Source: an uncultured bacterium (GTDB taxonomy: Bacteria; SAR324; NAC60-12). From it: 48,800 nucleotides of DNA. The stretch spans positions 1 through 48,800 of the forward strand of contig CAXGMD010000016.1 of the NCBI GenBank assembly GCA_964010765.1. Reading direction: 5' to 3'. The notes beneath the pieces are model-generated. The model had not been told where the DNA came from. It did not search any database and saw only the letters and a program-made list of their open reading frames with translations. Made by a program: the position numbers and the translations under genes. Positions 27,807 to 47,950 of the stretch are shown here, one piece after another. Each line of letters starts with the position of its first letter. The stretch's first letter is position 1.

Positions 27807-29246
27807 CTACATAACCCAGGGCATTGAGAAAGTCTTCAGGTTCGTGTAGCTTTTCATCGCCTCAATCACCCCCTCCTTATAGCCCAATCCTGAGTCCTTG
27901 ATACCTCCGAATGGCGACATTTCAATGCGATAGCCCGGGACCTCCCAGATATTAACAGTTCCATGATTGAGTTCAGCAATGAAGCGAGTGATGTAGTCCA
28001 ATAGATTTGTGCAGACTCCTGAGGAAAGACCAAAAGCCGTCCCATTGGCCACCCGAATTGCCTCGTCAATGTCCTGAATCCGAATGATAGGAATCGCAGG
28101 CCCAAAAGTCTCCCGCATTACCAACTCACAGTCCCAGGGGACATGATCAACAACCGTGGGAGGAAACACTGCTCCCTGGCGATTGTTTCCGTGCAACAAC
28201 TTGGCACCTACAGCGACCGCTTCTTCCACTCGACGCTGAAACAAAATGGCTGATTGCTCGTTGATCACCGTTCCAACATCCGTCTGTGGATCCATCGGGT
28301 CACCGTATTTGAGCTCCTTGGCTTTCTCGGTTACCAGCCTCACAAAGTCATCGGCAATCGAATCAATCACAAGAATACGTTTGACTGCCGTGCAACGCTG
28401 CCCCGAGTTCTTGGTCGCTCCCGCAACAGCCAAGGTCGCTGCACGGTCTAAGTCCGCATCTTCCATCACGATCAGAGGGGAGTTACCACCTAGTTCCAGC
28501 ACGGTGCGACGGTAGCCAGCCTTCTCGGCGATCATCTTCCCAACTCGTACGCTACCCGTGAAAGTAACTAGGTCAATGAGTGGGTTACAGATCATCTCGT
28601 AGCCAATATCTTCAGGTCGCCCAGTGACCACCTGAAACATCTCCGGAGGAAGACCTGCTTCATAGAGCACATCGGCTAGTAGCAAAGCCGTCATGGGTGT
28701 CAGTTCTGTCGGTTTGCAGACCATCCGATTGTTGGTGGCAATGCTGGGCGCAATCTTGTGGGCCACCATGTTCAGCGGATGGTTGAACGGAGTGATAGCG
28801 CTGATCACACCTTGCAGAGGTTCTCGCTGGGTGAAGATTTTTCGCTGCTGCCCATGTGGTGTTAGGTCACAGGAGAAGATCTGGCCGTCATCAAGGATGC
28901 AGAGTTGGCCAGCAAGACTGAAGACATCGAAGGCACGTCCCACCTCGTACAGTGAGTCTTTCTTTGAAAGTCCAGCCTCTGCCGTGATCAGGTCTGAAAT
29001 TTCCTCTCGCCTGCTCACCAACAGATCCGCTGTCTTGGTCAGGATTTGCTGACGCTCGTAACGAGTCAGCTTGGGCTTGAAGTTCTTGGCGATCTGTAGC
29101 GTCTGCTGAACCTGCTCCCTGGAAGCGCGAGGAACCGTGCCCACGACTTCATTGTTGTAAGGATTGAAGACTTCTAACGATCCAGCATCACCTGAAACCT
29201 TCTGACCACCAATGCGCATCGTTTCACTGCGTTGTACTGCGGGCAT
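27807..29246 (-). CDS. phnY: Phosphonoacetaldehyde dehydrogenase
   Basis: ALDH motifs ([26 protein letters not shown]) plus FSCDLTPHG and [15 protein letters not shown]. Follows phnA. Confidence 0.93.
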
Positions 29247-29260
29247 GAAATGTTTCCGCG

Positions 29261-30502
29261 CTAGGATGCGTAATTCAGGGCCAGGTCGAAGAGATCATAA
29301 TTATGAAGCAAAGACCCTGATGCTTCCACTTGCTGACTAAAAACGAGTGGAACTTGACGATCGCAGACTCCTCCGTGTGACCGGAGGGGTTCCTTGAGTT
29401 GGCTCAAATCATGACGTTCCGGTGTTGTTCCCAAGACCTTGTTCGTGGTGGAAACGACAATCAGATCACCAAGGCGATCATTCGGCAAATCAAAGGCCAC
29501 ACATCCTTCGATGTTTGTATAAGCAGCCTCGATCCCTTCGACTTCAGCTAAGCGCCCAGCCAGTTCCTGGGCTTTTGCCGTATCAGCAAGATACACCGTA
29601 GCAAAGGATCCCAATGCTCCATGATGAACCACGTACGGATCAGTGATTGGCAGGATCACTCGGGCTTGTCCTACACCAAGCCACTCATCAAACAGGGACT
29701 GCAGGTACAGCACATCCGGCTCACCCGCCTGATTGAACTTGGCATTCATGCCATGATCGGCAGTCAACGCCAAAGCGGCTCCCTGTGCATGGAGTTCCTC
29801 CCAGTAGCGATCCATCATCGCGTAGAACTGATTGGCTACCGGTGTTCCAGGTGCGTGCTTGTGCTGAATGTAATCAGTGGTGGAGAGGTACATCAGGTCG
29901 GGCCGAAAAGAGCACATCAGCTTGACCCCCGCATCAAAAATAAACTCAGACAATTCTGCTGAATAGACGCTGGGAATTGGCTTGTTTACCATGCCCTGAG
30001 CGTTCTCGATACCGTTCTCAGCAAGTGTCGTCTCATTCGCTTTTTCCGAGGAGAAGCAGATTGCTCTTCCAGAAGTGTAGTCTAATCCATGACCCAGTAA
30101 TCGGCGCAGCTTATCCTTTGCCGTCACAATCGCGATCTTGGCCCCTGCCTCGTGAAATGCCTGAAAAAGTGTTCCTGTACGCAGAAACTTCGGGTCGTTC
30201 ATCATCACTTCCTGACCGGATTCAGGATCCAGAAAGAAGTTTCCAGAGATCCCGTGAACCTTCGGGGGCACCCCCGTGACAATCGAGAGATTGTTAGGAT
30301 TCGTAAAGCTGGGGACGACACTCTGTCCACGCAAGTCCGTACCAGATTCCAACATCTTTTGTGTGAAGGGCATATGGCCCCCTGCGATCGCTTCTTCAAT
30401 GTACTCCGGTTGGGACCCATCGATACAGACAGCCACCAGCGGTTGCTGGGGCCAGGCGTATTCTCTGCCGTTTACAGTCAGTGGTGAATTCATTGGGGTC
30501 AT
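29261..30502 (-). CDS. phnA: Phosphonoacetate hydrolase
   Basis: [56 protein letters not shown]. Confidence 0.95.
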
Positions 30503-30520
30503 TCTCGTAATTTCAATGTT

Positions 30521-31645
30521 TTAAGCAGGCTTGTCGCAAGCAACACCCATTTCTACTAGAACAGCTTTCATAGCATCTACAGCAGACTGCATGTCTGCCG
30601 GCTGGAGGTGTCCAATACAGCCTACTCGGAAACTGGGGGCAACAGTCAATTTCCCAGGATAAAGGATGTAGCCACGTTCCTTGACACGATCATAAAACGT
30701 TTGGAAATCAAAGTTAGGATCAGCAGGCATCCGAAAAGTAACGATGATTGGCGCTTGTCGCTCGGGTGGCAACAGAGGTTCAAAACCTAGATCTGTCATC
30801 CCGGAAACAAGTGTTCGGCAATTCTCCGAATAGCGCGTGTTGCGTCCTGCCACACCCCCTTCTTTCTCAAATTGTTCGATCGCCTTGTCAAAAGCAATTA
30901 AAACATGTGTCGGTGGGGTGAATCGCCATTGGGAGCTTGCTTCCATCGTCTGCCACTGATCGTACAAATCCAGGCTCAGCGAATGTGCGTTTCCTTTACA
31001 TTGTTCCAGTACTTCCCGACGAAGGATCGCATAGCCCATTCCTGGCACACCCTCCAAGCACTTGTTAGAAGAGGCCATTACGGCATCAAACTGTACCTGC
31101 TGAGCATCCAGGGGAATGGCTCCGAATGCACTCATCGCATCAATGATCAGTGAGCGTTTGTGCTGGGCAACTATCTCAGCAACCTGTTCCACTGGATTGA
31201 GGATTCCGGAGGTCGTCTCACAGTGCACAACCAGCACGTGGGTGATCGAGTTATCCTTAGTGAGAGATCGTTGCAGTTCATCTAGATCAGGAGGTGAATC
31301 TTCCGGCGTCTCCTGCACCACGAAGGCTCTCTGCATGTAACCAAGCATCTTGGTCATGCGCTGACCGTAGGCCCCGTTAACCAGTACCAAGGCCTTGTCA
31401 GATCGGGAAATCAAGGTCCCAAGCACGGCTTCAACCGTAAAGGTCCCGCTACCCTGTAAGGGAACACATACGTGACTAGAGGTAGCTCCAGCAATTTCAA
31501 GGAGTTTCTGGCGTACTCTCGCGTTTGCTGTTAAAAATGTGGGGTCTCGCGAACCCCAGTCATGCAACATTGCAATCTTGGTTTCTTGAGACGTGGTCAG
31601 AGGACCTGGGGTTAAAAGGCGTGGATCATTAGGTGTGAAAGACAT
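30521..31645 (-). CDS. phnW: 2-aminoethylphosphonate--pyruvate transaminase
   Basis: LLTPGPLTTS, QGSGTF, HCETTSG, DAMSAFG, SSNKCLEGVPG, WRFTPPTH, YPGKLT. Confidence 0.95.
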   Translation of the reverse strand: MSFTPNDPRLLTPGPLTTSQETKIAMLHDWGSRDPTFLTANARVRQKLLEIAGATSSHVCVPLQGSGTFTVEAVLGTLISRSDKALVLVNGAYGQRMTKMLGYMQRAFVVQETPEDSPPDLDELQRSLTKDNSITHVLVVHCETTSGILNPVEQVAEIVAQHKRSLIIDAMSAFGAIPLDAQQVQFDAVMASSNKCLEGVPGMGYAILRREVLEQCKGNAHSLSLDLYDQWQTMEASSQWRFTPPTHVLIAFDKAIEQFEKEGGVAGRNTRYSENCRTLVSGMTDLGFEPLLPPERQAPIIVTFRMPADPNFDFQTFYDRVKERGYILYPGKLTVAPSFRVGCIGHLQPADMQSAVDAMKAVLVEMGVACDKPA

Positions 31646-31979
31646 TTTAATAAAAAACAAAGGTTTGGGAAAGCAAGCATAGTAATGAAAAGGTTTAAAT
31701 ATTTCGTGTTCTAAAGTACGAGTTTTCTGATCATTTTTTATTTTTTCAGTTAAGAAAAACGAATTTTAAATTCACTTTCAGGTAGGATAAATTCAATCAA
31801 TTCACATGATGAATTTGGAATGATTGAATACTATCTGCTAGGTTTATTTTTGAAAATCTTTTACAATCTCTAAAAAATTTGAAGCTTTTCAACTAATATA
31901 AATTTATCTGAGTTATCTTTTCTATATTTTTATTTCAAATCTTAGTGTTATTGTAGTAATTTAATCCACTTTAATTAAT

Positions 31980-36538: not shown

Positions 36539-37618
36539 ATGAAAATTAAAACAACAACAATTGGTGCTTTTCCAAAGCCCTCTTGCACACCAATTGGCGA
36601 TTGGTTTCCGAAAATAGATGATTCCGATGCTAAAGGTGCTGGCAAGGGCCTCCTACAAAGATGGAATATATCTGATTATGAGCAACAAATAAAGACTGCC
36701 GCCGATTCTGCAGAACCGCTGTTCCTGCAAGCAATTGAAGAAATTATTCTTGATCAAATACAATCTGGTGTGGACATACCCACTGATGGCGAAGTGAGAA
36801 GGGAGAACTACATCTATTACCAGTGTCGTCAAATCGACGGCATTGACTTCCAAACCATTACCCGTAAACAAGTAAGGTCTGGTGCTTTTGAAGCAAAACT
36901 ACCAACTATCACTGGCCCATTGCAACTCCGTAAAGCAGTTTTAGGAACTGATTACAGTTCTGCAAAGCAATTTACATCTAATCCTGTGAAGATAACTATT
37001 CCAGGTCCGATGACGATTGCCGATTCGATCGCCGACGAGTTCTACAATGATGAAAAAAAACTATGTAATGATTTAAGTAATGTCCTAAATCAGGAGATTC
37101 TCTTGTTAGCCAAAGCCGGCTGTAATCACATTCAAGTTGACGAACCTGTGTTTGCGAGGAAACCTGATAAGGCACTAAGTTATGGTATTGAGAGCCTTGA
37201 GCGCTGTTTTGCCGGTGTGCCAAAAGAGATTTGTAGGACAGTACACGCTTGCTGTGGTTATCCCAATGCTTTGGACAGTGAAAACTACCTGAAAGCCCCT
37301 CCTGAATCCTATTTTCATCTAGCCCCTGCCATTGATGACTCTTCAATCAATGCTTTTTCGATTGAAGATGCTCATCGACCTAACAATTTGAAGCTACTAG
37401 AACTTTTCAAAAATACTACCATTATTATGGGTTTGGTTGATGTTGCGAAAAGTAGTGTCGAAGAGGTCGAGCAAATTCAGGAGAGAATACGGCATTCACT
37501 ACATCACATAGACCGGGAGCGCCTAGTTGCAGCTCCTGACTGTGGCCTAGGGCTATTGGATCGGAATCTAGCCAAATCTAAACTGAAGAATCTCTGCACA
37601 GCAGCGCGGAATAGCTAG
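36539..37618 (+). CDS. Single-domain cobalamin-independent methionine synthase II family protein (MetE C-terminal-like)
   Basis: TTTIGAFPKP, TDGEVRR, PGPMT, IQVDEP; Zn ligands HACCG, SIE, APDCGLG. 359 aa, no N-terminal MetE half. Confidence 0.9.
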   Translation: MKIKTTTIGAFPKPSCTPIGDWFPKIDDSDAKGAGKGLLQRWNISDYEQQIKTAADSAEPLFLQAIEEIILDQIQSGVDIPTDGEVRRENYIYYQCRQIDGIDFQTITRKQVRSGAFEAKLPTITGPLQLRKAVLGTDYSSAKQFTSNPVKITIPGPMTIADSIADEFYNDEKKLCNDLSNVLNQEILLLAKAGCNHIQVDEPVFARKPDKALSYGIESLERCFAGVPKEICRTVHACCGYPNALDSENYLKAPPESYFHLAPAIDDSSINAFSIEDAHRPNNLKLLELFKNTTIIMGLVDVAKSSVEEVEQIQERIRHSLHHIDRERLVAAPDCGLGLLDRNLAKSKLKNLCTAARNS

Positions 37619-38554: not shown

Positions 38555-38875
38555 ATGAATCAGCTATTCCCCCCAAAAGTTATGGACCGCAGAAAGAGTG
38601 ATCGCAGGGCGAATGAACGTCGGTCCGATGAAAGAAGGCACCATGACCGAAGATCTGGCTCAGGAGAGGTACCCCGAGAACGCCGTCAAAGAGAGGAACT
38701 GGTGGAGTTGACAGACCGGCGCCTAACAGACCGGCGTAATCAGGATCGGCGGGAACACGATCGAAGAAAAATCAATTTGTTGCTGAACACGGAAGCACAA
38801 CAACTCTTGGCAAAGACACCCTGGATGGAAGAACTTCTTGTGAAGATTGCCGAGGATCAAAAAAGTTCTACCTAA
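38555..38875 (+). CDS. Small protein with tandem (D/E)RRxx repeats
   Basis: ATG with AAAGGTGG upstream. DRRKSDRRANERRSDERRHHDRR and DRRLTDRRNQDRREHDRR, then a helical tail. Confidence 0.8.
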   Translation: MNQLFPPKVMDRRKSDRRANERRSDERRHHDRRSGSGEVPRERRQREELVELTDRRLTDRRNQDRREHDRRKINLLLNTEAQQLLAKTPWMEELLVKIAEDQKSST

Positions 38876-38927
38876 GATCAAAATCAGCCCACCCAAGTGT
38901 CCTAATCACCAAGAAGCACCTCTCCTC

Positions 38928-40247
38928 TCAGAGGTACTTTTCACGTATCGGAGAAACTGCGTTCTCGTGGGAGGAAAACCCCTCATAGTGGGCCAGAACC
39001 TTAGCTCTTTTGGCAAGTTCTGGATAAGCTGGAGGAGTAACATATCCTATCGAACTTCGCTTCATAAAGTCGTGAACAGAAAGCGGTCCAAAGGTTTTGG
39101 CACCCTGACTTGTTGGCAACACAGCGTTGGGGCCGAGTGAGAAATTACCAATGCAGACTGGAGTATGAGGCCCCATTAAAATTTCTGCTGCCTCTGTAAT
39201 GTGGCCCAAGTGTGTGAATGGCTCTGTGGAAAGCAGTTCCAAGTGTTCTGGAGCATAGTCATTTATGAATCGGTAGCTTTCCTCGACCGATGATGTCAGC
39301 AAAATTCCACCATAGGGACCTGTCAGCACAGTTTTAGAAAACTCTACCCGCTGTGCAGTCATCTTCGCCCAGTGATCAGGCAAAGCAGCCAGAGCCTCTT
39401 CCACCACACGGCGAGAGTGTGTGACTAAGTAAGCTGAGCTATCTGGTCCATGTTCTGCTTCAATCAGCAGATCTAGCGCAGCGAGTCCACCATGAACACT
39501 ATCGTCAGCAAATATAATTGCTTCGGACGGCCCAGCCGGCAAGCCAGGATCAATAATATCAGATAGCAATCGTTTAGCTGCCACGACCCAAGGACTACCT
39601 GGACCAACAATCTTAAGTGCTCGTTCAATAGTCTCAGTACCAAATGTAGCAGCAGCTACAGCTTGCGCACCTCCACACTTGTAGACAGTATCGACACCCG
39701 CAATACTTGCTGCTACAAGAGTTGCTGAATCCACAGATCCATTCGGTAATGGAGGGGTGAAAATCGCCAACTTTGGAACCTGAGCTACTACGCCCGGTAT
39801 TGCAGTCATCATCGTCACTGATGGAAAAGCACCCTTCCCACGCGGCACATAGATCGCGACAGAGCGAATTGGAGTTAGTCGATCTCCAGCATAAGCGCCC
39901 GGTCGAATCTCCTTCATCCACATAGTTTCTGGCTTCTGCTCCTCATGGAAGGTTCTGATATTGGTGATACCATAGCGAATCGCCTCAATGACTACCTCTT
40001 CGACTTCTTCAAACGCAGCAGCGAACTCCGCTTCACTTACCTTCAGAGCTTCCTTACTCAGCAGCGTAGAGCCATCTAATTGCTGGCCAAAACGAACTAG
40101 CGCTTCATCTCCTTCTAAACGCACCGCCTCGATGATAGGCTTCACCTTCTCCACAAAGCTTGAGAGATCAGCCTCTGAACGCTTTAGCAAAGCTTTATAA
40201 TCTGCGGCTGTCAGCTTACTAGTTTCGTGAAAGGATACCGTTGACAT
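38928..40247 (-). CDS. Histidinol dehydrogenase paralog with a divergent active site
   Basis: YVPRG, GGAQAVAA, KIVGPG, PAGPSE, AEHGPDS, APEHL are HisD-family motifs. It has DLLIEAEH and IGNF where canonical HisD has DLLSQAEH and AGDY. Confidence 0.9.
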   Translation of the reverse strand: MSTVSFHETSKLTAADYKALLKRSEADLSSFVEKVKPIIEAVRLEGDEALVRFGQQLDGSTLLSKEALKVSEAEFAAAFEEVEEVVIEAIRYGITNIRTFHEEQKPETMWMKEIRPGAYAGDRLTPIRSVAIYVPRGKGAFPSVTMMTAIPGVVAQVPKLAIFTPPLPNGSVDSATLVAASIAGVDTVYKCGGAQAVAAATFGTETIERALKIVGPGSPWVVAAKRLLSDIIDPGLPAGPSEAIIFADDSVHGGLAALDLLIEAEHGPDSSAYLVTHSRRVVEEALAALPDHWAKMTAQRVEFSKTVLTGPYGGILLTSSVEESYRFINDYAPEHLELLSTEPFTHLGHITEAAEILMGPHTPVCIGNFSLGPNAVLPTSQGAKTFGPLSVHDFMKRSSIGYVTPPAYPELAKRAKVLAHYEGFSSHENAVSPIREKYL

Positions 40248-40282
40248 GATGCAGTGCCTTTTTGAGTAAGTTTTGGTGACAG

Positions 40283-41083
40283 TCACTTCGATTTAAGAAA
40301 GATTTCTAAACCAACTATTTTGTCCAGTATGGCAATAGCCAACATCGCTACTGCAATAAAAACAACCGAGACAGCCGCTAGGTCTGGTGTAATAATCGAA
40401 CGGATAGAATTGTAGACTTGTACGGGGAGCGTGACAATTCGAGCATCTACAAGCAATAGGCTAACGAGAAATTCGTTCAGGGATAGAATGAACATCAGCA
40501 GAGAGCCTGTGATGATTCCCGGCATTACTGACGGCAAGGTCACATAGAAAAAAGTTTGAACCGGACCAGCACCGCAACTTTGGGCAGCAAGTTCCAGATC
40601 AGGATCTAGGCCTGTAGCACTTGAGGAAACTGCCCAAATCATGAAAGGGAGATTGATCACAGCGGTAGCTACGCCAACCGGCCAAAGGCTCCCAAGAATA
40701 CCGACTTCACCAAAGACCAACATCAATCCGATTCCCGATCCAATCAGTGGGATTGTGAAAGGTAACAGGAGATAGGTCTGAATCAAAGCACCCTTGCGTA
40801 ATCGATACTTTACTAGGGCAATCCCCGCCAAGGTCCCCGCAGGCAAAGAGATAAGCACACAAATTATGGCCACCCAGATTGAACGTATAAATGCATCCTG
40901 CAATTCCTGCTTTTCCACGAGAGCTTTGTACCACTTCAAGGACAACCCATCCGGAGGGAAAACAATAATATTTCCAGAAGTCAGGGAAGCTCCAAGCACA
41001 ACAAGTGTTGGTGCAGAGAGAGTAATGATCGAGATAACGATTAGTATCCAGAAAAATAGTTTCTGGGCAACTGGCTGGTTCAT
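40283..41083 (-). CDS. ABC permease (PotC-like)
   Basis: FPPDGLSLKWY, LELAAQSCGA EAA loop, FILSLNEF, TLPV. Confidence 0.92.
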   Translation of the reverse strand: MNQPVAQKLFFWILIVISIITLSAPTLVVLGASLTSGNIIVFPPDGLSLKWYKALVEKQELQDAFIRSIWVAIICVLISLPAGTLAGIALVKYRLRKGALIQTYLLLPFTIPLIGSGIGLMLVFGEVGILGSLWPVGVATAVINLPFMIWAVSSSATGLDPDLELAAQSCGAGPVQTFFYVTLPSVMPGIITGSLLMFILSLNEFLVSLLLVDARIVTLPVQVYNSIRSIITPDLAAVSVVFIAVAMLAIAILDKIVGLEIFLKSK

Positions 41084-42024
41084 TTATCTTTTGCGCCCAA
41101 GGCTAGTGTCCCTGCACCAACCAACATAAAAATAATCCAAACTAAGAGTGAACCAATTGCAATCAATAACACGGCCAGACTGGAACCAAATCCCTGATCG
41201 GACGTCCGGAAAAACTGGTCATAGATTGCGTTCGCCACAAAATCCTGAGTTCCACCACCAAGAATAGCTGGCATCGCAAAATCTGTCAGAGAGAGAGTCA
41301 AGACCACCAAACCCGCACCGATTAGACCGGACTTAGCCATGGGAAGTATCACATAAAGCATTGTTTCCTGCCAGGAAGCCCCAAGAGATTCAGCAGCAGC
41401 TTCAATTTCTTCAGGAATTGCGGTTAGTGCTGGAGCCAACATCAATACGGCAAATGGAAACATGTACTGTACAAGCCCAAACAGAACCGAAGGATAGTTG
41501 AAAAGCATGCGTAGTGGTTCAATACCAATCAACCCCAGTATATCGTTCACTATCCCTTGTTTGCCCAGAATAATAAGCCATCCATAAGCGCGTACTACTT
41601 GTCCAATGAAAAAAGGCAAAAATAGAGCAATTAGCAAGAATTTTCGTAGAAATGCACTACGCGTTCTTACCATAATGTAGGTATAGGGGAAGGCCAGTAG
41701 CAATGTAGTCATGGTAACGATAGTTGCACCAAGAATACTTCGCCAAATGACAGATCGAATGAATGGCTCTGTCAGTGCGCGCTCGTAGTTTGCCAGTGAC
41801 CACTCCTCCGAGAAAAGGAAGGTGCTCGTGTCAAGAGTTCTTAAAGAAGTGTCACCAATATAAGCAAGTCCTAGAACAAGCAGACCAACTAACAAAATTG
41901 CAGGACTCAACATTAGATAAGGCCCCCAGAAGCCTCCTTTTTTGGGCCAAATTTTACTGAAAGCAGCTTCTAGGATATCCATCAAGTGCCAAGTCAACGG
42001 ATAGCAAGATAGATTACGTCTCAT
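41080..42024 (-). CDS. ABC permease (PotB-like)
   Basis: VVRAYGWLIILG..G, IEAAAESLGA, PAILGGG. Confidence 0.92.
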   Translation of the reverse strand: MRRNLSCYPLTWHLMDILEAAFSKIWPKKGGFWGPYLMLSPAILLVGLLVLGLAYIGDTSLRTLDTSTFLFSEEWSLANYERALTEPFIRSVIWRSILGATIVTMTTLLLAFPYTYIMVRTRSAFLRKFLLIALFLPFFIGQVVRAYGWLIILGKQGIVNDILGLIGIEPLRMLFNYPSVLFGLVQYMFPFAVLMLAPALTAIPEEIEAAAESLGASWQETMLYVILPMAKSGLIGAGLVVLTLSLTDFAMPAILGGGTQDFVANAIYDQFFRTSDQGFGSSLAVLLIAIGSLLVWIIFMLVGAGTLALGAKDK

Positions 42025-42047
42025 TAGTTTTCGATCGATCTATGAGA

Positions 42048-42078
42048 CCACTGGAACTTCAAACCTAAAGCCCAGTGG
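42048..42078 (-). other. Intra-operon stem-loop downstream of the SBP gene
   Basis: CCACTGG...CCAGTGG inverted repeat with extra wobble pairing on the minus strand. This is the typical position of an SBP mRNA stabiliser. Confidence 0.45.
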
Positions 42079-42093
42079 CTAAACTTTTCAGAA

Positions 42094-43194
42094 TCACCCC
42101 TGCATAATCGCCTTGAACTTCGAGAACCACTCGCTCTCGTTTTCTACCTGGATCTTGCCTGAGATACGGATCAGCCGATCAAAGTCAGCCGGTTTAGTTG
42201 GATAGGAAGGATCTCCAGCTAATCCTGGTGGCGGTCGCAATCCAGGGATGACTCCGGGCAATCCTAAACCATCCAGCCAAATCTGCTGAGATTCCTTACT
42301 TAGAGCGTGGTTGATGTATTCTCTGGACCAGTACAAATCTCCTTCAGAGTGCCCTTTAGGAATCCACAGCCCATCTGTATCAAACTTGGCGCCCTCCTTT
42401 GGAATCGTCCAAGCGATATCTACTCCATTTCTTTTGGCTCCTAGTGCGTTTGTTGAAATCGTACATGCTGCGTCAATTTCTCCATTCTGGAACCACGTCA
42501 CAAAATCAGGATCTTCTCCAAGTAATGGTTCTTGAGTTTTGATTTTAGACACAAAATCCCAGCAGGGTTGCATATTATTTGGGATACCATCTAATTTACC
42601 ACCGCCAGCGACCTGTGCTGGAAAGTGGAATCCAATCCCATCGTTGTAAAACGCTAGTCGTCCCTTAAATTTAGGGTCAAGCAGATCGTGATAGGATGCT
42701 GGTGGTCCACTTGGAAAGGCACTCGGCCGGTATGCTAACACATACACATACCCGTAAGTATTGACGATCGGATAGCCATCTACGCCCACAGGCTTTGCCA
42801 AGTCAGTGGTTCCTTTCAGATTGGGTAGGTCGGAAAGATCCTCACACACTCCACGAAGTGCCGACTTAGTAGCATTGGTCGTTGTGTCCCAATTGATATG
42901 GATTGGGGGAGTTCGCTTTTGAGCAACAGCAGCCCAAACCTTTGGTTGTATTTCATTATCCTCAGTCAAATCATGTCGTACTTTAATACCTGTCTTGGTC
43001 GTAAATGGATCTGAAACTCCAGCCTTCAGTGCTTCGACCCAAGGACCACCCCAAGCTCGGACAATAATCTCTGTTGGCTTGGCAGGTTCCGCTTTCAGTA
43101 AAGATGGTGCTACAGACCCAGCTGCACCAGCAATTCCCAGCATGGCTGAGGTCTTCAGTAAATCTCTCCGTTTGATCTGCTTGTCGAAAGTCAT
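42094..43194 (-). CDS. PotD/PotF-family ABC substrate-binding protein with Tat signal
   Basis: ATG 43194 with AGGAG. KRRDLLK twin-arginine leader; WGGPW, DLLDPKFKGR, PKEGA, YINHALS. Confidence 0.88.
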   Translation of the reverse strand: MTFDKQIKRRDLLKTSAMLGIAGAAGSVAPSLLKAEPAKPTEIIVRAWGGPWVEALKAGVSDPFTTKTGIKVRHDLTEDNEIQPKVWAAVAQKRTPPIHINWDTTTNATKSALRGVCEDLSDLPNLKGTTDLAKPVGVDGYPIVNTYGYVYVLAYRPSAFPSGPPASYHDLLDPKFKGRLAFYNDGIGFHFPAQVAGGGKLDGIPNNMQPCWDFVSKIKTQEPLLGEDPDFVTWFQNGEIDAACTISTNALGAKRNGVDIAWTIPKEGAKFDTDGLWIPKGHSEGDLYWSREYINHALSKESQQIWLDGLGLPGVIPGLRPPPGLAGDPSYPTKPADFDRLIRISGKIQVENESEWFSKFKAIMQG

Positions 43195-43239
43195 ACTCAA
43201 CTCCTGATTCTGGTTAAGACTCGGCTGTTGCCAAGTTAA

Positions 43240-44346
43240 TCAATCCACGACAAAGACATGCATGTCGCGGCTCTGCCATCCAACAAAGACCATCTCTCCT
43301 ACTTCGAATGTTGAGAAGTCTTGCTGGTCATGGTGAATGATCCTGATGGGCGCATCAGATAACGCTGCCACCGAAAGTTCATAGAGAATCCGTTCTCCCT
43401 CAAAAATAACATCCGTTACTCGACCCTCAAAATAAGCCTCACATTCTCTGTTTTCTGATTTTCCACGAAACAGTCGAATCTGTTCTGCACGGATAGCAGC
43501 CTGCACTGAAACTCCCTGGGTCAGCGCAGAGTTCTCACTCTTTGAAGTACCAAGCAGTGTCTGCTGACTGATTCTGATTGCTACCTGCTGTCCCTTTAGA
43601 GACTCCAGCATCCCATGGAATAGGTTAGTTACCCCTACAAAATTAGCTACAAAAGGATTTGATGGAGAACGGTAAACTTCCAAGGGGGTAGCATTCTGCT
43701 GGATTTCTCCATAATTCATCACAATGATCTGATCAGAAACCACCAGTGCTTCTCGCTGATCATGGGTAACATTTATCGTGGTGACACCGAGTTCCTTCTG
43801 AATTCTCCGAAACTCTAATTGCATTTCTTCACGTAACTTGCGATCCAAGGCCGCTAGTGGTTCGTCCAAAAGGAGTAAGTCTGGTTCAAAAACCAAGGCT
43901 CGAGCAATCGCCACACGCTGCTGCTGCCCTCCTGAAAGTTCATTGATCTTACGACTACCAAGCCCCTCCAAACGCACAAGGTGCAAGTATTCTTTCACCC
44001 GGTCAGAGATCGTACGGGCGTTAAACCTGCGCATTTTCAACGGAAACGCTACATTTTCCGCTGCGGTCATGTGTGGGAATAAAGCAAGGCGTTGGAATAC
44101 CATCCCAATCGAGCGTTTGTTGGGAGCTAATTCCCTAACAGTTTGTCCCTTGATAAAAATTTCGCCCTGATCTGGTTGCTGAAAACCGGCGATCAGCCTG
44201 AGTAAAGTTGTTTTTCCAGAGCCCGAGGGGCCCAAAACTGTGAGAAAACGGCCCTCCTCCAGTTCAAAACAGACGTTCTTAACGGCATGTACATCACCAA
44301 ACTGTAAACAGACGTTTGAAGCAGAAACTGCAGAAACTTTATTCAA
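43240..44346 (-). CDS. ABC ATP-binding protein (PotA-like)
   Basis: GPSGSGKTT, ALFPHMT, LSGGQQQRVAIARAL, DEPLAALD, VTHDQ. Confidence 0.93.
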   Translation of the reverse strand: MNKVSAVSASNVCLQFGDVHAVKNVCFELEEGRFLTVLGPSGSGKTTLLRLIAGFQQPDQGEIFIKGQTVRELAPNKRSIGMVFQRLALFPHMTAAENVAFPLKMRRFNARTISDRVKEYLHLVRLEGLGSRKINELSGGQQQRVAIARALVFEPDLLLLDEPLAALDRKLREEMQLEFRRIQKELGVTTINVTHDQREALVVSDQIIVMNYGEIQQNATPLEVYRSPSNPFVANFVGVTNLFHGMLESLKGQQVAIRISQQTLLGTSKSENSALTQGVSVQAAIRAEQIRLFRGKSENRECEAYFEGRVTDVIFEGERILYELSVAALSDAPIRIIHHDQQDFSTFEVGEMVFVGWQSRDMHVFVVD

Positions 44347-44421
44347 AGTAAGAAATTTGGGCTAGAGTCATTCACTGGCAGTTCAATCCAAGATGTTGTT
44401 GTAGGACAATGGAGACAGCCT

Positions 44422-45192
44422 TCAAATGGACGCGAGATAGCCTCCATCGATTGCCAAACATTGGCCGGTGATATACTTTGCGGCATCACTAACAAGGAAG
44501 ACAACCGCACCTTTAAGGTCGTTTGCATTGCCAAAGCTATTCAGCGGGATTTTCTGCAGCATAGCTTCTTGCCAAGCCTGTTCACGATAAAAGGCCTCCG
44601 TCAACTCCGTCCTGAAGTAACCTGGCGCAATCGCATTGACTCGAATTTGCTCACTTGCCCATTCTGTTGAGAGCGCACGTGTCATGCCCAATAGTCCCGA
44701 CTTGGAGGAACCGTAAGGCACTGCCGTTGGCACACCAACATATGATGTCAGGGAACATACATTAACAATGGCACCACCTCTGCTGGAACGTACCATACTG
44801 TGAGCAGCAACTTGGGCAGCAAAAAAGGCTCCCTTGAGATTAGTTTCCATGATAGTGTCCCAGGTTTCCTCAGTCAGTTCATAGGAGGGACACACTTGTT
44901 CGTAGCCTGCATTATTGACGAGGATGTCTATTTCTCCAGCCTGCTGAGCAACTGTCTGAAGTCTATTCCTCATTGCGGGTACGTCACGAACATCTAACTC
45001 TATTTGTCGGGACTCGCCTCCGAAATCGGAGATCCGAGATTGTGTTTCCTCAAGTGCTTTCAAAGAACGGGAGGTGATTACTACTGTTGCACCCGCCTCC
45101 GCTAAGCCAATTGCGATTGCCTGGCCAAGTCCTCGACTAGCTCCCGTAACAATTGCATTTTTTCCTGATAGGTCAATGGTGAAACCTTTCAC
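44422..45192 (-). CDS. SDR oxidoreductase (KduD/gluconate-5-dehydrogenase-like)
   Basis: TGASRGLG, NNAG, YGSSKSG, RVNAIAPGYF, DGGYLA. Confidence 0.9.
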   Translation of the reverse strand: MKGFTIDLSGKNAIVTGASRGLGQAIAIGLAEAGATVVITSRSLKALEETQSRISDFGGESRQIELDVRDVPAMRNRLQTVAQQAGEIDILVNNAGYEQVCPSYELTEETWDTIMETNLKGAFFAAQVAAHSMVRSSRGGAIVNVCSLTSYVGVPTAVPYGSSKSGLLGMTRALSTEWASEQIRVNAIAPGYFRTELTEAFYREQAWQEAMLQKIPLNSFGNANDLKGAVVFLVSDAAKYITGQCLAIDGGYLASI

Positions 45193-45273
45193 TTGAAAGT
45201 CTCCTTACAGAAAAACAATCAAATAGATAAGCATGTCTTTAACAATAAAAATCTCTGAACAAAATAGATTCCA

Positions 45274-46386
45274 ATGAAACCACTTGAAAAGATTTTGCGC
45301 CCCGAACTCATGGAAATACCCCCATACAACGTGGGGCTTGGGCTGAACGAGGTAAAATCACGTTATGGAGTAACTGCAGTTGCAAAACTGTCCTCAAATG
45401 AGAATCCAACTGGCCCAGCACCACAGGTTTTAGAGTGTCTCTCCCAAACTAGTTCGGAACTGTATCTTTATCCCGACAGTGAGGCTCTTTTGCTGCGCAA
45501 GGCAATTGCTCGACGCTTAAATGTCTCTGAAAAGCGAATAATTTTTGGCAACGGTTCAGAAGAATTAATTTCGATTATCTGTCGAAGTGTTGTCAATCCA
45601 GGCGATCGAGTTGTTACTCTCTATCCTTCCTTCCCACTGCATGAAGATTATACCAAGTTGATGGGAGGTTCTGTCGAAAGACTGGCGATAAATGACAAAC
45701 TCCGGATTGATCTAACCAAACTTATCGAGAGGGCTGCACAACCAGCCAAATTACTCATTTTTGCCAATCCGATGAACCCTAGTGGAAGTTGGCTAAACCC
45801 TGAACAACTGAGACAATTGTTTGCAGCCAAGCATCCAGAGACTATGCTCGTGCTTGACGAAGCTTATCACGAATACGCAGTTCATGGAAACTACACCAGT
45901 GGTCTCGACCTCACGGAACTGATGCCAGGACATTGGGTAGTACTTAGAACATTTTCTAAGAGTTGGGGGCTTGCGGGGCTCCGAATCGGCTTTGGCATAT
46001 GTAGTTCAACAGAACTTTGCCAAGCACTGGACCGAACGCGTACTCCCTTCAATACCAATCAATTGGCCCAGATAGCTGCGAAAGCCGCCTTGGATCACGA
46101 GGATTACATGCTCCACAGTGTTCAACAAACAATCCTACAACGCGAGCGTCTTGCTAAAGAACTCCGATCTCGTGGTTACCAAGTCGGAGAATCTCTCGGG
46201 AATTTCCTATTCATCAATATCAATCACTCTTCAATAAAATTTGCAGAAGAACTCCTTAAACTAGGTACAATTGTTAAGCCCTGGCTTCAGCCGGGTTATG
46301 ACACTTTCCTTCGTGTGTCGATTGGCACACCAGTAGAAAATGAAAAATTTCTGGTGGATCTGGATCAGATAGAGGCTTTTCGATAA
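45274..46386 (+). CDS. hisC: Histidinol-phosphate aminotransferase (HisC)-family PLP enzyme
   Basis: KLSSNENP, YPD, GNGSEE, NPMNPSG, DEAY, RTFSKSWGLAGLRIG, RVSIG. Confidence 0.85.
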   Translation: MKPLEKILRPELMEIPPYNVGLGLNEVKSRYGVTAVAKLSSNENPTGPAPQVLECLSQTSSELYLYPDSEALLLRKAIARRLNVSEKRIIFGNGSEELISIICRSVVNPGDRVVTLYPSFPLHEDYTKLMGGSVERLAINDKLRIDLTKLIERAAQPAKLLIFANPMNPSGSWLNPEQLRQLFAAKHPETMLVLDEAYHEYAVHGNYTSGLDLTELMPGHWVVLRTFSKSWGLAGLRIGFGICSSTELCQALDRTRTPFNTNQLAQIAAKAALDHEDYMLHSVQQTILQRERLAKELRSRGYQVGESLGNFLFININHSSIKFAEELLKLGTIVKPWLQPGYDTFLRVSIGTPVENEKFLVDLDQIEAFR

Positions 46387-46476
46387 AGAGATTGGCTCAG
46401 AAACTTTGTGAATCCATTTTTTTCAAGATATTTGCAAAAACTTCCAGCTTAACCATACTTTTTCAGTTATGCCTTT

Positions 46477-47625
46477 TTATTTTTGACGAACGTAGCGATC
46501 CCCAAACTGCTTTAGCTCATCAACACTAGGCACACCCATCAACTTCATTGTGATTGAAATTTCTTTGGCAAATATCTCAATTGCTTTTTCAACACCCGAC
46601 CTTCCGTCTGCAGCAAGTCCAAACGCATAAGCTCGACCCAACAGCACTCCACTAGCGCCCAAGGCTAGAGCAATTACCACCTCGGAACCACGGCGGAATC
46701 CACCATCAATCATCACACAATAATCTTTGCCAACTGCCTTACGAATTTCTGGCAAGATGGAGATCGTCGAATTGGCAAAATCTAATTGTCGGCCACCATG
46801 ATTCGATACAACAATAGCATCTGCTCCGTGATCTATGGCCTTAATTGCATCATCTGAATTAAGTATACCTTTCATCACCAGTCGTTTTTTCCAAACCTTG
46901 CGGAGCCACTTCATATCCTCCCAGATAATTGAAGAATCAAGCCTACCAGAAAGATTGGACGCCTGCTCTAGGATGCCTTTACCAAATTCAGGGTAGTTGG
47001 CCAACGCCTCTACACTTGGAATTCCGGATTGCCACATATCCCAGCACCAAAGTGGGCGCTGCATCATTGAAAATATTAGTGTTGGGTTGAGGCGCCTAAC
47101 CGCCCGAAATCCATTACGGACATCTCTTTCACGTACAGACGTTACTGCGGTATCAGCTGTGTAAAATAGAGTCTCAACTTTTGCATCTACAGCTGATTCC
47201 ACTAACTTTTCGACAAAAGATCGCTGGCAATCCATGTAGAGTTGGAATTGGAGTGTGCCCCCAACCTCCCTCTGCAGAGTCCCTAAACTTGCAATAGAAA
47301 AGGTTGAAAGACACAAAGGAATACCTTTTTCCTTGGCGGCTTCTGCGCAAAGAATTTCTCCCCGACCACGATAAAGTCCTAGGAAGCCAACCGGTCCGAG
47401 CATGATAGGAAGTGTGTGCCTAGTTCCAAGAAACTCACAACTCAAGTCTGGCATACCCTTTAATGCTAAAACTCTCTGAATTAGGCACCAATTGTCAAAA
47501 TCCTCATGATTACGCAGTGCCGTAGTGTCTGAAAACGCAGCCCCATCAATGTAGTCAAAAAATATTTTGGGTAATCGACGCTTTGCGTGCTTTCTCAGAT
47601 CTTCGACATTCACAATTGTTGTCAA
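46477..47625 (-). CDS. FMN-dependent alpha-hydroxy acid dehydrogenase/oxidase (LldD/mandelate dehydrogenase family)
   Basis: FFDYIDG, FQLY, RERD, KGIL, SNHGGRQLD, DGGFRRG, LGRAY. AGGAG upstream of the TTG start. Confidence 0.92.
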   Translation of the reverse strand: MTTIVNVEDLRKHAKRRLPKIFFDYIDGAAFSDTTALRNHEDFDNWCLIQRVLALKGMPDLSCEFLGTRHTLPIMLGPVGFLGLYRGRGEILCAEAAKEKGIPLCLSTFSIASLGTLQREVGGTLQFQLYMDCQRSFVEKLVESAVDAKVETLFYTADTAVTSVRERDVRNGFRAVRRLNPTLIFSMMQRPLWCWDMWQSGIPSVEALANYPEFGKGILEQASNLSGRLDSSIIWEDMKWLRKVWKKRLVMKGILNSDDAIKAIDHGADAIVVSNHGGRQLDFANSTISILPEIRKAVGKDYCVMIDGGFRRGSEVVIALALGASGVLLGRAYAFGLAADGRSGVEKAIEIFAKEISITMKLMGVPSVDELKQFGDRYVRQK

Positions 47626-47734
47626 CTTATTCTCCTTTTACAGTTAATAAAATCGTTAATATCTGCTGGATAATCTGATGCTAGGATGAAAAATTTGGTA
47701 AGCTACTAAGTAAATAAAAATGGTAGAAATGATG

Positions 47735-47764
47735 TTGACAATCAAGAAAGTAAGTCACCATGAT
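47735..47764 (+). promoter_or_regulatory. Candidate sigma70 promoter for the cytochrome genes
   Basis: TTGACA at 47735, 18-nt spacer, CATGAT at 47759. Confidence 0.3.
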
Positions 47765-47950
47765 TTTTTTAGGCTGCAAAAAAACTCCACAGAGAGTCCT
47801 TGATTTATTGTCAGTTACGATCACCATTATTGGGTAGGTTGTATCCCTTGAATCACAACGAGGTATTCAGACACATTGAAGTTAGAATCTCTGCAGGGCT
47901 CCGTTGCCCATCACCAAATGCCTTTTTAAACCAACTCTAATCGAGTCACC

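Follow-up and report, generated by a model that had tools for sequence, protein, structure and literature searches.

Exchanged zinc ligands in a HisD-family dehydrogenase of a SAR324 genome and a possible alternative end to histidine biosynthesis

A contig of an uncultured SAR324 bacterium (lineage NAC60-12; assembly GCA_964010765.1, contig CAXGMD010000016.1, positions 1 to 48,800, the whole stretch being called the window below) encodes a protein of the histidinol dehydrogenase (HisD) family, designated HisD2, in which two of the four zinc ligands are replaced. The locus raises the question of which alcohol such an enzyme oxidises. The reading favoured here, with a chance close to but short of even, is that HisD2 oxidises a non-aminated imidazolyl three-carbon alcohol (imidazole-acetol, -propanediol or -glycerol), which would imply an alternative end to histidine biosynthesis. 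The gene and the residues concerned are as follows.

38928-40247, minus strand: HisD-family dehydrogenase of the Glu/Asn clade (HisD2 type), 439 amino acids (PF00815, TIGR00069, structure model, 73% identity to the copy on Sinorhizobium meliloti pSymA)
39459-39461, minus strand: Glu263 replacing the zinc ligand Gln259 (alignment to E. coli HisD; 200/200 close relatives)
39144-39146, minus strand: Asn368 replacing the zinc ligand Asp360 (alignment; 200/200 close relatives)
39156-39158, minus strand: Val364 replacing the second-shell Glu356 (alignment; not diagnostic, Glu being present in 41/99 Gln/Asp-type representatives)
39123-39125, minus strand: Ala375 replacing His367 (alignment; 200/200 close relatives; His in 99/99 Gln/Asp-type and 2/23 Glu/Asn-type representatives)
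39243-39248, minus strand: catalytic Glu334-His335 (E. coli Glu326-His327), kept (alignment; 200/200)
38967-38984, minus strand: Glu422 (Glu414, imidazole partner) and His427 (His419, zinc ligand), kept (197/200 and 198/200)
39594-39842, minus strand: clade markers in the loops binding nicotinamide adenine dinucleotide (NAD), Arg136 (Gly133; 39840-39842) and Ser218 (Asn211; 39594-39596), 200/200 each

Residues were mapped on HisD of E. coli K-12 from NC_000913.3, to which HisD2 is 33% identical. The alignment bore out a preliminary description of the locus, both in its E. coli numbering and in the substitutions Q259E, D360N, E356V and H367A with the catalytic Glu-His pair, Glu414 and His419 kept, and added the two NAD-loop changes listed above. 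The zinc site of HisD2 is made of Glu263, His266, Asn368 and His427 versus the canonical Gln259, His262, Asp360 and His419. Also unchanged is His262 and, among the NAD contacts, Asp59, Tyr130, Gln188 and Ser237 (E. coli numbering), the fifth contact, Asn211, being Ser. The close relatives comprised the proteins of 80 of 314 loci and the best 120 of 7394 protein matches; position 364 was Val in 194 of them, Ile in 5 and Cys in 1. A sequencing error or pseudogene as the origin of the substitutions was ruled out by the strict conservation of Glu263, Asn368, Ala375, Arg136 and Ser218 and by the intact structure model.

The open reading frame starts with ATG, and an alternative upstream GTG at 40286 would give a protein of 452 amino acids. 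HisD2 scored 403.5 bits against TIGR00069 (cut-off 243.8) and 429 bits against PF00815 (cut-off 27), but this membership fixes no function because HpsN-like proteins pass too. The predicted structure (mean predicted local distance difference test score, pLDDT, 95.8) has the four-domain HisD fold, with a template-modelling (TM) score of 0.92 and a root-mean-square deviation of 1.8 to E. coli HisD (1kae). Across solved histidinol dehydrogenases (EC 1.1.1.23; 1kae and 5vld from Medicago truncatula) the TM scores were 0.91-0.92, versus 0.82-0.88 for HpsN, and by this structural comparison the fold is closest to HisD. HisD2 is almost surely an active zinc- and NAD-dependent dehydrogenase. In agreement with the earlier view of a HisD paralog, it is distinct, intact and conserved, and is the third HisD-family copy of its own genome, next to a canonical hisD (contig C1) and an HpsN-like gene (contig C20). 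Its nearest named relatives are from SAR324 bacteria (93-96% identity), followed by Alphaproteobacteria (72-81%).

The preliminary description had taken Glu356 and His367 for residues binding the amino group of the substrate. According to the available part of PMC5585171, the zinc of the M. truncatula structures is coordinated by the amine and imidazole nitrogens of the substrate, His408 (E. coli 367) touches the substrate oxygen through its backbone carbonyl, and Glu397 (E. coli 356) holds the amide of Gln299 (E. coli 259). Neither Glu356 nor His367 would therefore bind the amine, and the assignment found no support.

A family survey with 150 representatives at 50% identity, of which 126 were intact enough to be scored and 24 fragmentary or frameshifted rows were dropped, gave 99 proteins with Gln/Asp zinc ligands, 23 with Glu/Asn and 4 with other combinations. 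His367 follows the zinc-ligand type (see above), and Glu356 is missing in 58/99 Gln/Asp and in all 23 Glu/Asn representatives. In a quick IQ-TREE phylogeny of 83 rows (Gln/Asp type subsampled to 40 rows, rooting at the midpoint, support by the SH-like approximate likelihood ratio test, SH-aLRT, only), every Glu/Asn row fell in one group of 38 with a support of 98, in which residue 360 of two basal rows is Cys. The closest neighbours of the window protein within it are alphaproteobacterial rows, among which it nests. The zinc-ligand swap is, by these sequences, the mark of one deep clade separate from canonical HisD. One carboxylate and one amide are still present at the zinc after the swap. 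The four changes behave as one package around it, and alone they do not show a new substrate. The idea that E356V marks a 2-hydroxy substrate, the HpsN-like protein of the same genome also having Val, was dropped since Glu356 is missing in so many Gln/Asp-type proteins.

On the substrate, gene context carries more weight than the residues. The hisD2 gene closes an operon within an eight-gene cassette:

38884-47789, no strand: limits of the cassette, present or absent as a unit (contig junction and flank spacing in related genomes)
40283-44346, minus strand: PotABCD-like ABC importer, with permeases at 40283-41083 and 41080-42024, binding protein at 42094-43200 and ATPase at 43240-44346 (profile matches)
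44422-45192, minus strand: short-chain dehydrogenase (SDR; KduD / gluconate 5-dehydrogenase-like), first gene of the operon (orthologue in 75/80 related loci)
45274-46386, plus strand: HisC-like aminotransferase (HisC3 type), divergent (NF003496, 490 bits; TIGR01141, 287.6 bits; in 21/80 loci)
46477-47625, minus strand: flavin mononucleotide (FMN)-dependent 2-hydroxy-acid dehydrogenase (PF01070; the motifs that we take to be catalytic are present; in 15/80 loci)

The operon order is SDR-potA-potD-potB-potC-hisD2, with intergenic gaps of -4 to 75 bp. The importer binding protein is weakly like solved ones, and no close solved relative that could indicate its ligand was found (best E 1e-8).

Neighbourhoods were compared in 80 of the 314 loci, a set skewed towards Phyllobacteriaceae (37). 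Beside the genes counted above, a zinc-type medium-chain dehydrogenase (MDR) occurs in 71 loci, the regulator HutC in 59, a kinase-fold protein in 43, hut enzymes in 15 and an aromatic transaminase in 5. An importer is encoded in 74/80 loci, of Pot type in 29 and of NMT1 type in 45, the two never together. All five aromatic transaminase loci carry the FMN enzyme and none has HisC3, which suggests a 2-oxo acid product. Among 63 full-length loci, 26 contain SDR, MDR and HisD2 but neither a transaminase nor a kinase nor an FMN enzyme up to 10 kb away, and hence no local route to histidinol. For the kinase-fold neighbour the identity of a class III aminotransferase was ruled out, as it shows an APH / methylthioribose-kinase-like fold with the catalytic motifs (best TM about 0.44, a likeness at the family level only). 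A plasmid copy of the hisD2 locus carries an FMN hydroxy-acid oxidase together with a GhrA-type reductase. In a subclade of 50-53% identity (L089:5045-11326, L091:1591-11335 and L195:9633-16823), the adjoining genes encode a dimethylformamidase-beta-like protein, an importer and a UTRA regulator, and ggt, flavin adenine dinucleotide (FAD) oxidoreductase or methylaspartate mutase genes lie nearby with no SDR or MDR; His367 is kept in L089-L091, and another imidazole substrate may perhaps be used there.

Allowing up to 1 mismatch to a provisional consensus, a HutC-type box was found within 250 bp upstream of the SDR gene in 51/75 loci versus 74/3638 random and 117/3750 shuffled windows; the same search gave none in the SAR324 window. 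In genome G012 a 52% homologue belongs to a hut cluster in which the MDR is replaced by a glycerol dehydrogenase (NF006941, 396 bits, cut-off 336); this cluster is interrupted between potC and hisD2 by a Dam-family methylase and a neighbouring gene (L084:12076-13844). In the accessible text of Leyn 2016 (PMC5343134), predicted HutC regulons include hisD (4 genomes), hisC, PotABCD, SDR, a Zn dehydrogenase and SMa0403, all labelled as ordinary. The link of the clade with imidazole compounds follows from these HutC genes, hut enzymes, boxes and regulons. With Glu414 and His419 kept in addition, the substrate of HisD2 very probably retains the imidazole ring. Of the activity proposed in the preliminary description, the NAD/zinc dehydrogenase acting on a substrate with a ring nitrogen is the predicted part that finds support; the loss of the alpha-amine is the leading reading on account of gene context, and not of the residues cited for it.

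The closest described counterpart is the pSymA locus of S. meliloti (SMa0387-SMa0403), whose HisD2 (SMa0398) has the same active site and in which the order with divergent hisC3 followed by SDR-potADBC-hisD2 is shared. Unlike the window, that locus also contains an MDR, HutC, the kinase-fold gene and two HutC-type boxes; it carries the FMN enzyme as well. The available parts of the literature already give SMa0398 as a histidinol dehydrogenase and predicted HutC regulon member, the hisD2 gene and cluster being annotated likewise (also PMC12542648 and PMC8844928), and a tolC mutant shows a joint drop of the SMa0387-SMa0402 genes and hutUGH (PMC2912261, as far as the accessible text goes). No functional study of SMa0398 was found in the literature searched. 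As described in the accessible part of PMC5929573, a metabolic model curated with transposon sequencing data assigns the HisD steps to smc02307 alone, with hisC3 redundant, whereas an earlier model had both hisD genes; this lends weak support to non-redundancy of S. meliloti hisD and, to that extent, to the favoured reading.

A precedent for an oxygen-substituted substrate is provided by HpsN, the 2,3-dihydroxypropane-1-sulfonate 3-dehydrogenase. HpsN belongs to the HisD family, oxidises a 2-hydroxy and not a 2-amino alcohol, and is encoded with an SDR (HpsO) and a Zn-MDR (HpsP). According to the available text of PMC11131964 the triad acts on a 1,2-diol, an older racemisation model being disputed, and that of PMC11382572 indicates that the HisD fold can accept a 2-hydroxy substrate and ignore histidinol. 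The same source describes the motif G-R-Y-A/S-H with His126, together with Lys353 and Asp352, the D352A variant being inactive. HisD2 has no His at the 126 motif, Phe369 for Lys353 and Asn368 for Asp352, which ruled out HpsN as its identity, in line with the difference noted earlier. The window SDR scored 154 bits to HpsO (8wwf) versus 322 bits to PDB 4j2h, a likeness to HpsO at the family level only; 4j2h is a close solved relative (E 2.5e-95) of unknown function. HutC and hut genes, and no sulfolyase among conserved neighbours, also set the clade apart from hps loci. The HpsN-like paralog of the same SAR324 genome (L081:8925-10202, G000:C20) keeps Lys353, has an altered His126 motif and lies among sugar ABC, LacI and amidohydrolase genes; it may act on yet another substrate.

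These comparisons also bear on the idea that HisD2 acts on a non-imidazole compound, such as another N-heterocyclic or a sulfonated polyol, or is a protein impaired by the loss of Asp360. The inactivity of HpsN D352A, the replacement of the NAD contact Asn211 by Ser and the lack of a HutC link in the window are compatible with it. Since a Glu stands in for the lost carboxylate under strict conservation, the sulfonate residues of HpsN are absent from HisD2, HutC boxes occur in relatives and the clade supplies the sole HisD of genomes with the histidine pathway (see below), we consider it improbable.

The match of the SDR+MDR core with the hpsO/hpsP/hpsN triad favours an O-substituted alcohol instead, as histidinol offers no secondary alcohol. 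For the favoured reading we infer the following reactions and substrates from residues and gene context. The cassette importer of a SAR324-type genome would take up imidazolyl three-carbon alcohols, and the SDR (plus the MDR or glycerol dehydrogenase in relatives) would adjust the C2 carbinol. HisD2 would act as a four-electron alcohol-to-acid dehydrogenase on a substrate carrying oxygen, not an amine, at C2, with zinc binding the imidazole nitrogen and the C2 oxygen and with His335/Glu334, like their counterparts in HisD and HpsN, driving two hydride transfers at C1. Imidazole-acetol would be converted to imidazole-pyruvate, Asn368 possibly donating a hydrogen bond to the carbonyl; the diol would give imidazole-lactate, which the FMN enzyme would turn into imidazole-pyruvate, and the triol would give imidazole-glycerate, on which a dehydratase would act next. 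Imidazole-pyruvate would be transaminated to histidine by HisC3, and the minimal SDR+MDR+HisD2 set would need just a housekeeping aromatic transaminase. From its gene context, HisD2 probably channels an imidazolyl alcohol towards histidine. Histidine would be degraded under HutC control in rhizobia and roseobacters. At E 1e-10 the SAR324 genome yielded no match to the kinase-fold gene, HutC or HutF/G/H/I/U, and hutU was found in 0/9 genomes of the genus, so that histidine would there be the retained end product.

Pseudomonas reportedly uses imidazole-lactate, by biochemistry dating from 1969, via imidazole-pyruvate and histidine (histidine transaminase) to the Hut pathway, with an NAD(P) enzyme rather than an FMN enzyme and with no HisD-like step. 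This route matches the lower half of the pathway proposed for the window.

Members of the Glu/Asn clade were also found in the place of the biosynthetic enzyme. Among 301 Pseudomonadota genomes filtered for 90% completeness, the clade alignment gave matches in 17 at E 1e-150, and in nine of these a HisD of the deep Glu/Asn type was the sole PF00815 gene, whereas the SAR324 genome holds the canonical copy on C1 beside the window gene. All nine carry hisA and hisF, and the active-site columns of their HisDs equal those of HisD2 save for conservative changes, at an overall identity of 46-52%. An enzyme of the Glu/Asn type must therefore lead to histidine. No normal imidazole-glycerol-phosphate dehydratase (IGPD) was found in the nine genomes, and the best HisC was just under the cut-off in 5 of the 9 sole-type genomes tested. 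Two stand-ins for HisB track the clade. The first is a 650-amino-acid fusion of HAD with a twin degenerate IGPD, present in 8/301 genomes, all among the nine (examples are L140:1263-3188 and G190:C9:41153-43087). The second is the kinase-fold gene, found in 6/301 genomes, in five as a full-length gene, each time together with a Glu/Asn HisD, and in one as fragments on tiny contigs. By a provisional mapping of residues by motif, the metal ligands of the twin IGPD are split between both domains, and equivalents of the phosphate ligands Arg99 and Ser199 are absent in 10/10 copies. The ligand roles were taken from the available part of PMC4509728.

A set of 80 metagenome loci recruited with an alignment of distant clade members gave a similar picture. 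Glu259 was present in 77/77 scorable proteins and Asn360 in 76, and the SDR/MDR/HutC/hut set was found in none of the 80 loci at 40% identity or more. The neighbours included hisI (3), hisG (3), the kinase-fold gene (5) and an HAD-IGPD fusion (3), and folC directly followed hisD in 46. In the latter (L121:1976-5888 and 45 other loci among L092-L171) hisC sometimes comes next, and the housekeeping cluster looks spirochaete-like. Locus L145 (Ktedonobacteraceae) contains a his operon of the order hisZ-hisG-kinase-fold-hisH-hisA-hisF-hisI-hisD, with neither hisB nor hisC inside it, an absence that holds for the operon only. A HAD domain is fused in 36/120 listed homologues of its kinase-fold protein. 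The family (SMa0403 type), unnamed and with intact catalytic motifs, is often fused or adjacent to HAD and occupies the hisB slot of Chloroflexota his clusters, as exemplified by L145:3718-4947, L155:9263-10519, L169:9296-11589 and L013:12356-13654; it is a candidate non-homologous dehydratase.

In sole-HisD lineages, the end of histidine biosynthesis would on the favoured reading be reordered into dephosphorylation, oxidation, dehydration where needed, and transamination. In the explicit form, which we regard as possible but rather unlikely, HAD dephosphorylates imidazole-glycerol phosphate, the HisD2-type enzyme forms imidazole-glycerate (or acts via imidazole-acetol), the split-site IGPD or an ATP-using kinase-fold dehydratase gives imidazole-pyruvate, and transamination follows with no histidinol formed, rhizobia, roseobacters and SAR324 reusing such enzymes to scavenge imidazolyl polyols. 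An imidazole-glycerate product needing a dehydratase would explain the odd HisB stand-ins, and the loss of the Arg99/Ser199 equivalents was likewise counted in favour of the non-aminated substrate.

The sole-HisD genomes speak against imidazole-ethanol or imidazole-acetaldehyde, named as example substrates in the preliminary description. On such a reading they would be oxidised to imidazole-acetate in a breakdown of histamine taken up by the polyamine-type importer. The PotABCD-like importer, the retained imidazole-binding residues and the subclade in which a dimethylformamidase-like gene and an FAD oxidoreductase take the place of SDR/MDR would suit such a role, yet a two-carbon side chain cannot give histidine. 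With an amine oxidase or imidazole-acetate monooxygenase not seen among conserved neighbours and an NMT1-type importer replacing the Pot type in 45/80 loci, histamine breakdown is improbable.

A much stronger contender, which we rate as a substantial possibility though under an even chance, is that HisD2 oxidises L-histidinol in the ordinary way, the zinc-ligand swap being neutral, and serves as the housekeeping HisD in some lineages and as a salvage isoenzyme in the window. In salvage, HisC3 would aminate the diol or acetol, with or without phosphorylation, to histidinol for oxidation by HisD2, and the odd HisB-like genes would be divergent dehydratases for the usual substrate. It is in agreement with the one carboxylate and one amide at the zinc, the kept catalytic residues, the HisD-like fold, the sole-HisD status in 9/9 genomes of the deep type and the almost identical active site of these sole HisDs. 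Clade members adjoin hisI, hisG, hisC or HAD-IGPD in several metagenome loci, and histidinol is the simplest reading of HAD-IGPD, HisC and HisD clusters. It leaves the SDR+MDR core with no role in the 26/63 loci devoid of a nearby transaminase or kinase, and it gives no account of two unrelated HisB stand-ins confined to the Glu/Asn clade or of a kinase-fold gene shared by biosynthetic and HutC-controlled operons. The apparent non-redundancy of S. meliloti hisD in the accessible model description also argues against it.

Several observations weigh against the alternative end of the pathway. Taken as one package, the four changes can be neutral, Glu356 only holding the Gln259 amide and His367 co-varying with Asp360. 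HAD+IGPD, a HisC-like gene and HisD in the nine genomes are the make-up of the ordinary pathway, and these genomes are probably kin, so that eight of nine may represent one transfer. A Glu/Asn HisD with His367 kept adjoins a normal hisB in L171, and the G056 and G012 assemblies have a normal hisB and no Gln/Asp biosynthetic HisD. Arg121 and Lys201 remain in the split IGPD, as does a basic residue at 177. HisC3 and the kinase-fold gene are coupled in Mesorhizobium (34 loci, with both in 7, neither in 24 and a single one in 3), which also fits a kinase giving imidazole-acetol phosphate for HisC3 and the ordinary route. HutC repression could hide redundancy of S. meliloti hisD2. Since HpsN requires Asp352, a 2-hydroxy substrate would bind differently in HisD2 than described there, and the window SDR and the MDR of relatives resemble HpsO/HpsP at the family level only. 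A HutC gene, HutC box, MDR and kinase-fold gene are all missing from the window, and activities of clade members are assigned from genes and residues. HisD2 may possibly accept both histidinol and an O-substituted alcohol.

Known before are the annotation of the gene and cluster as hisD2 and the HutC prediction. No mention of the ligand swap, an activity assay or a HisB stand-in link for the clade, or of a histidine route of the kind proposed, was found in the literature searched, most subscription journals lying outside it, and the available part of GapMind 2026 yielded no hisD passage. Among the papers found, in which no clade member is assayed, none describes the swap in a validated histidinol dehydrogenase. 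According to the accessible text of PMC9798254, histidine biosynthesis is regarded as chemically uniform across life save for the phosphatase step. A swapped-ligand clade tied to two unrelated HisB stand-ins would mean either an alternative route or a natural metal-ligand swap plus a new non-homologous dehydratase. If the favoured reading is true, the automatic label of histidinol dehydrogenase on many rhizobial and marine proteins would need correction, and an unrecognised imidazole nutrient would exist in soil and sea.

As to the cassette, a public contig joins position 38883 directly to 47790 and two further runs show loose ends at 38883. The flanks are about 210 bp apart in genome G003 and 8.9 kb apart in G005 and G008, and two of the five genomes tested had neither flank; some strains lack the whole cassette. 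The hisD2 gene is present in 6/9 genomes of the genus and in 1/32 further relatives. A further HisD-family copy with two internal stops, from a shared frameshift or a pseudogene, occurs in four genomes of the genus (G008:C221:4490-5752, G003:C416:455-1720, G007:C93:4819-6084 and G005:C339:21937-23202). The stretch is contained in 17 RNA runs, 15 of which seem to stem from a single 2018 campaign. The four examined are contigs that extend over intergenic DNA as well, and they were not accepted as evidence of expression.

Just outside the cassette, an open reading frame of 106 amino acids (38555-38875) with repeated Asp-Arg-Arg units and no family match is conserved in SAR324 loci. A stand-alone catalytic domain of cobalamin-independent methionine synthase (PF01717) at 36539-37618 scored under every NCBIfam cut-off. 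The window also contains phnW-phnA-phnY for 2-aminoethylphosphonate breakdown (27807-31660), all above NCBIfam cut-offs; in L001 and L004 hisD2 is followed by a second, copy-like set.

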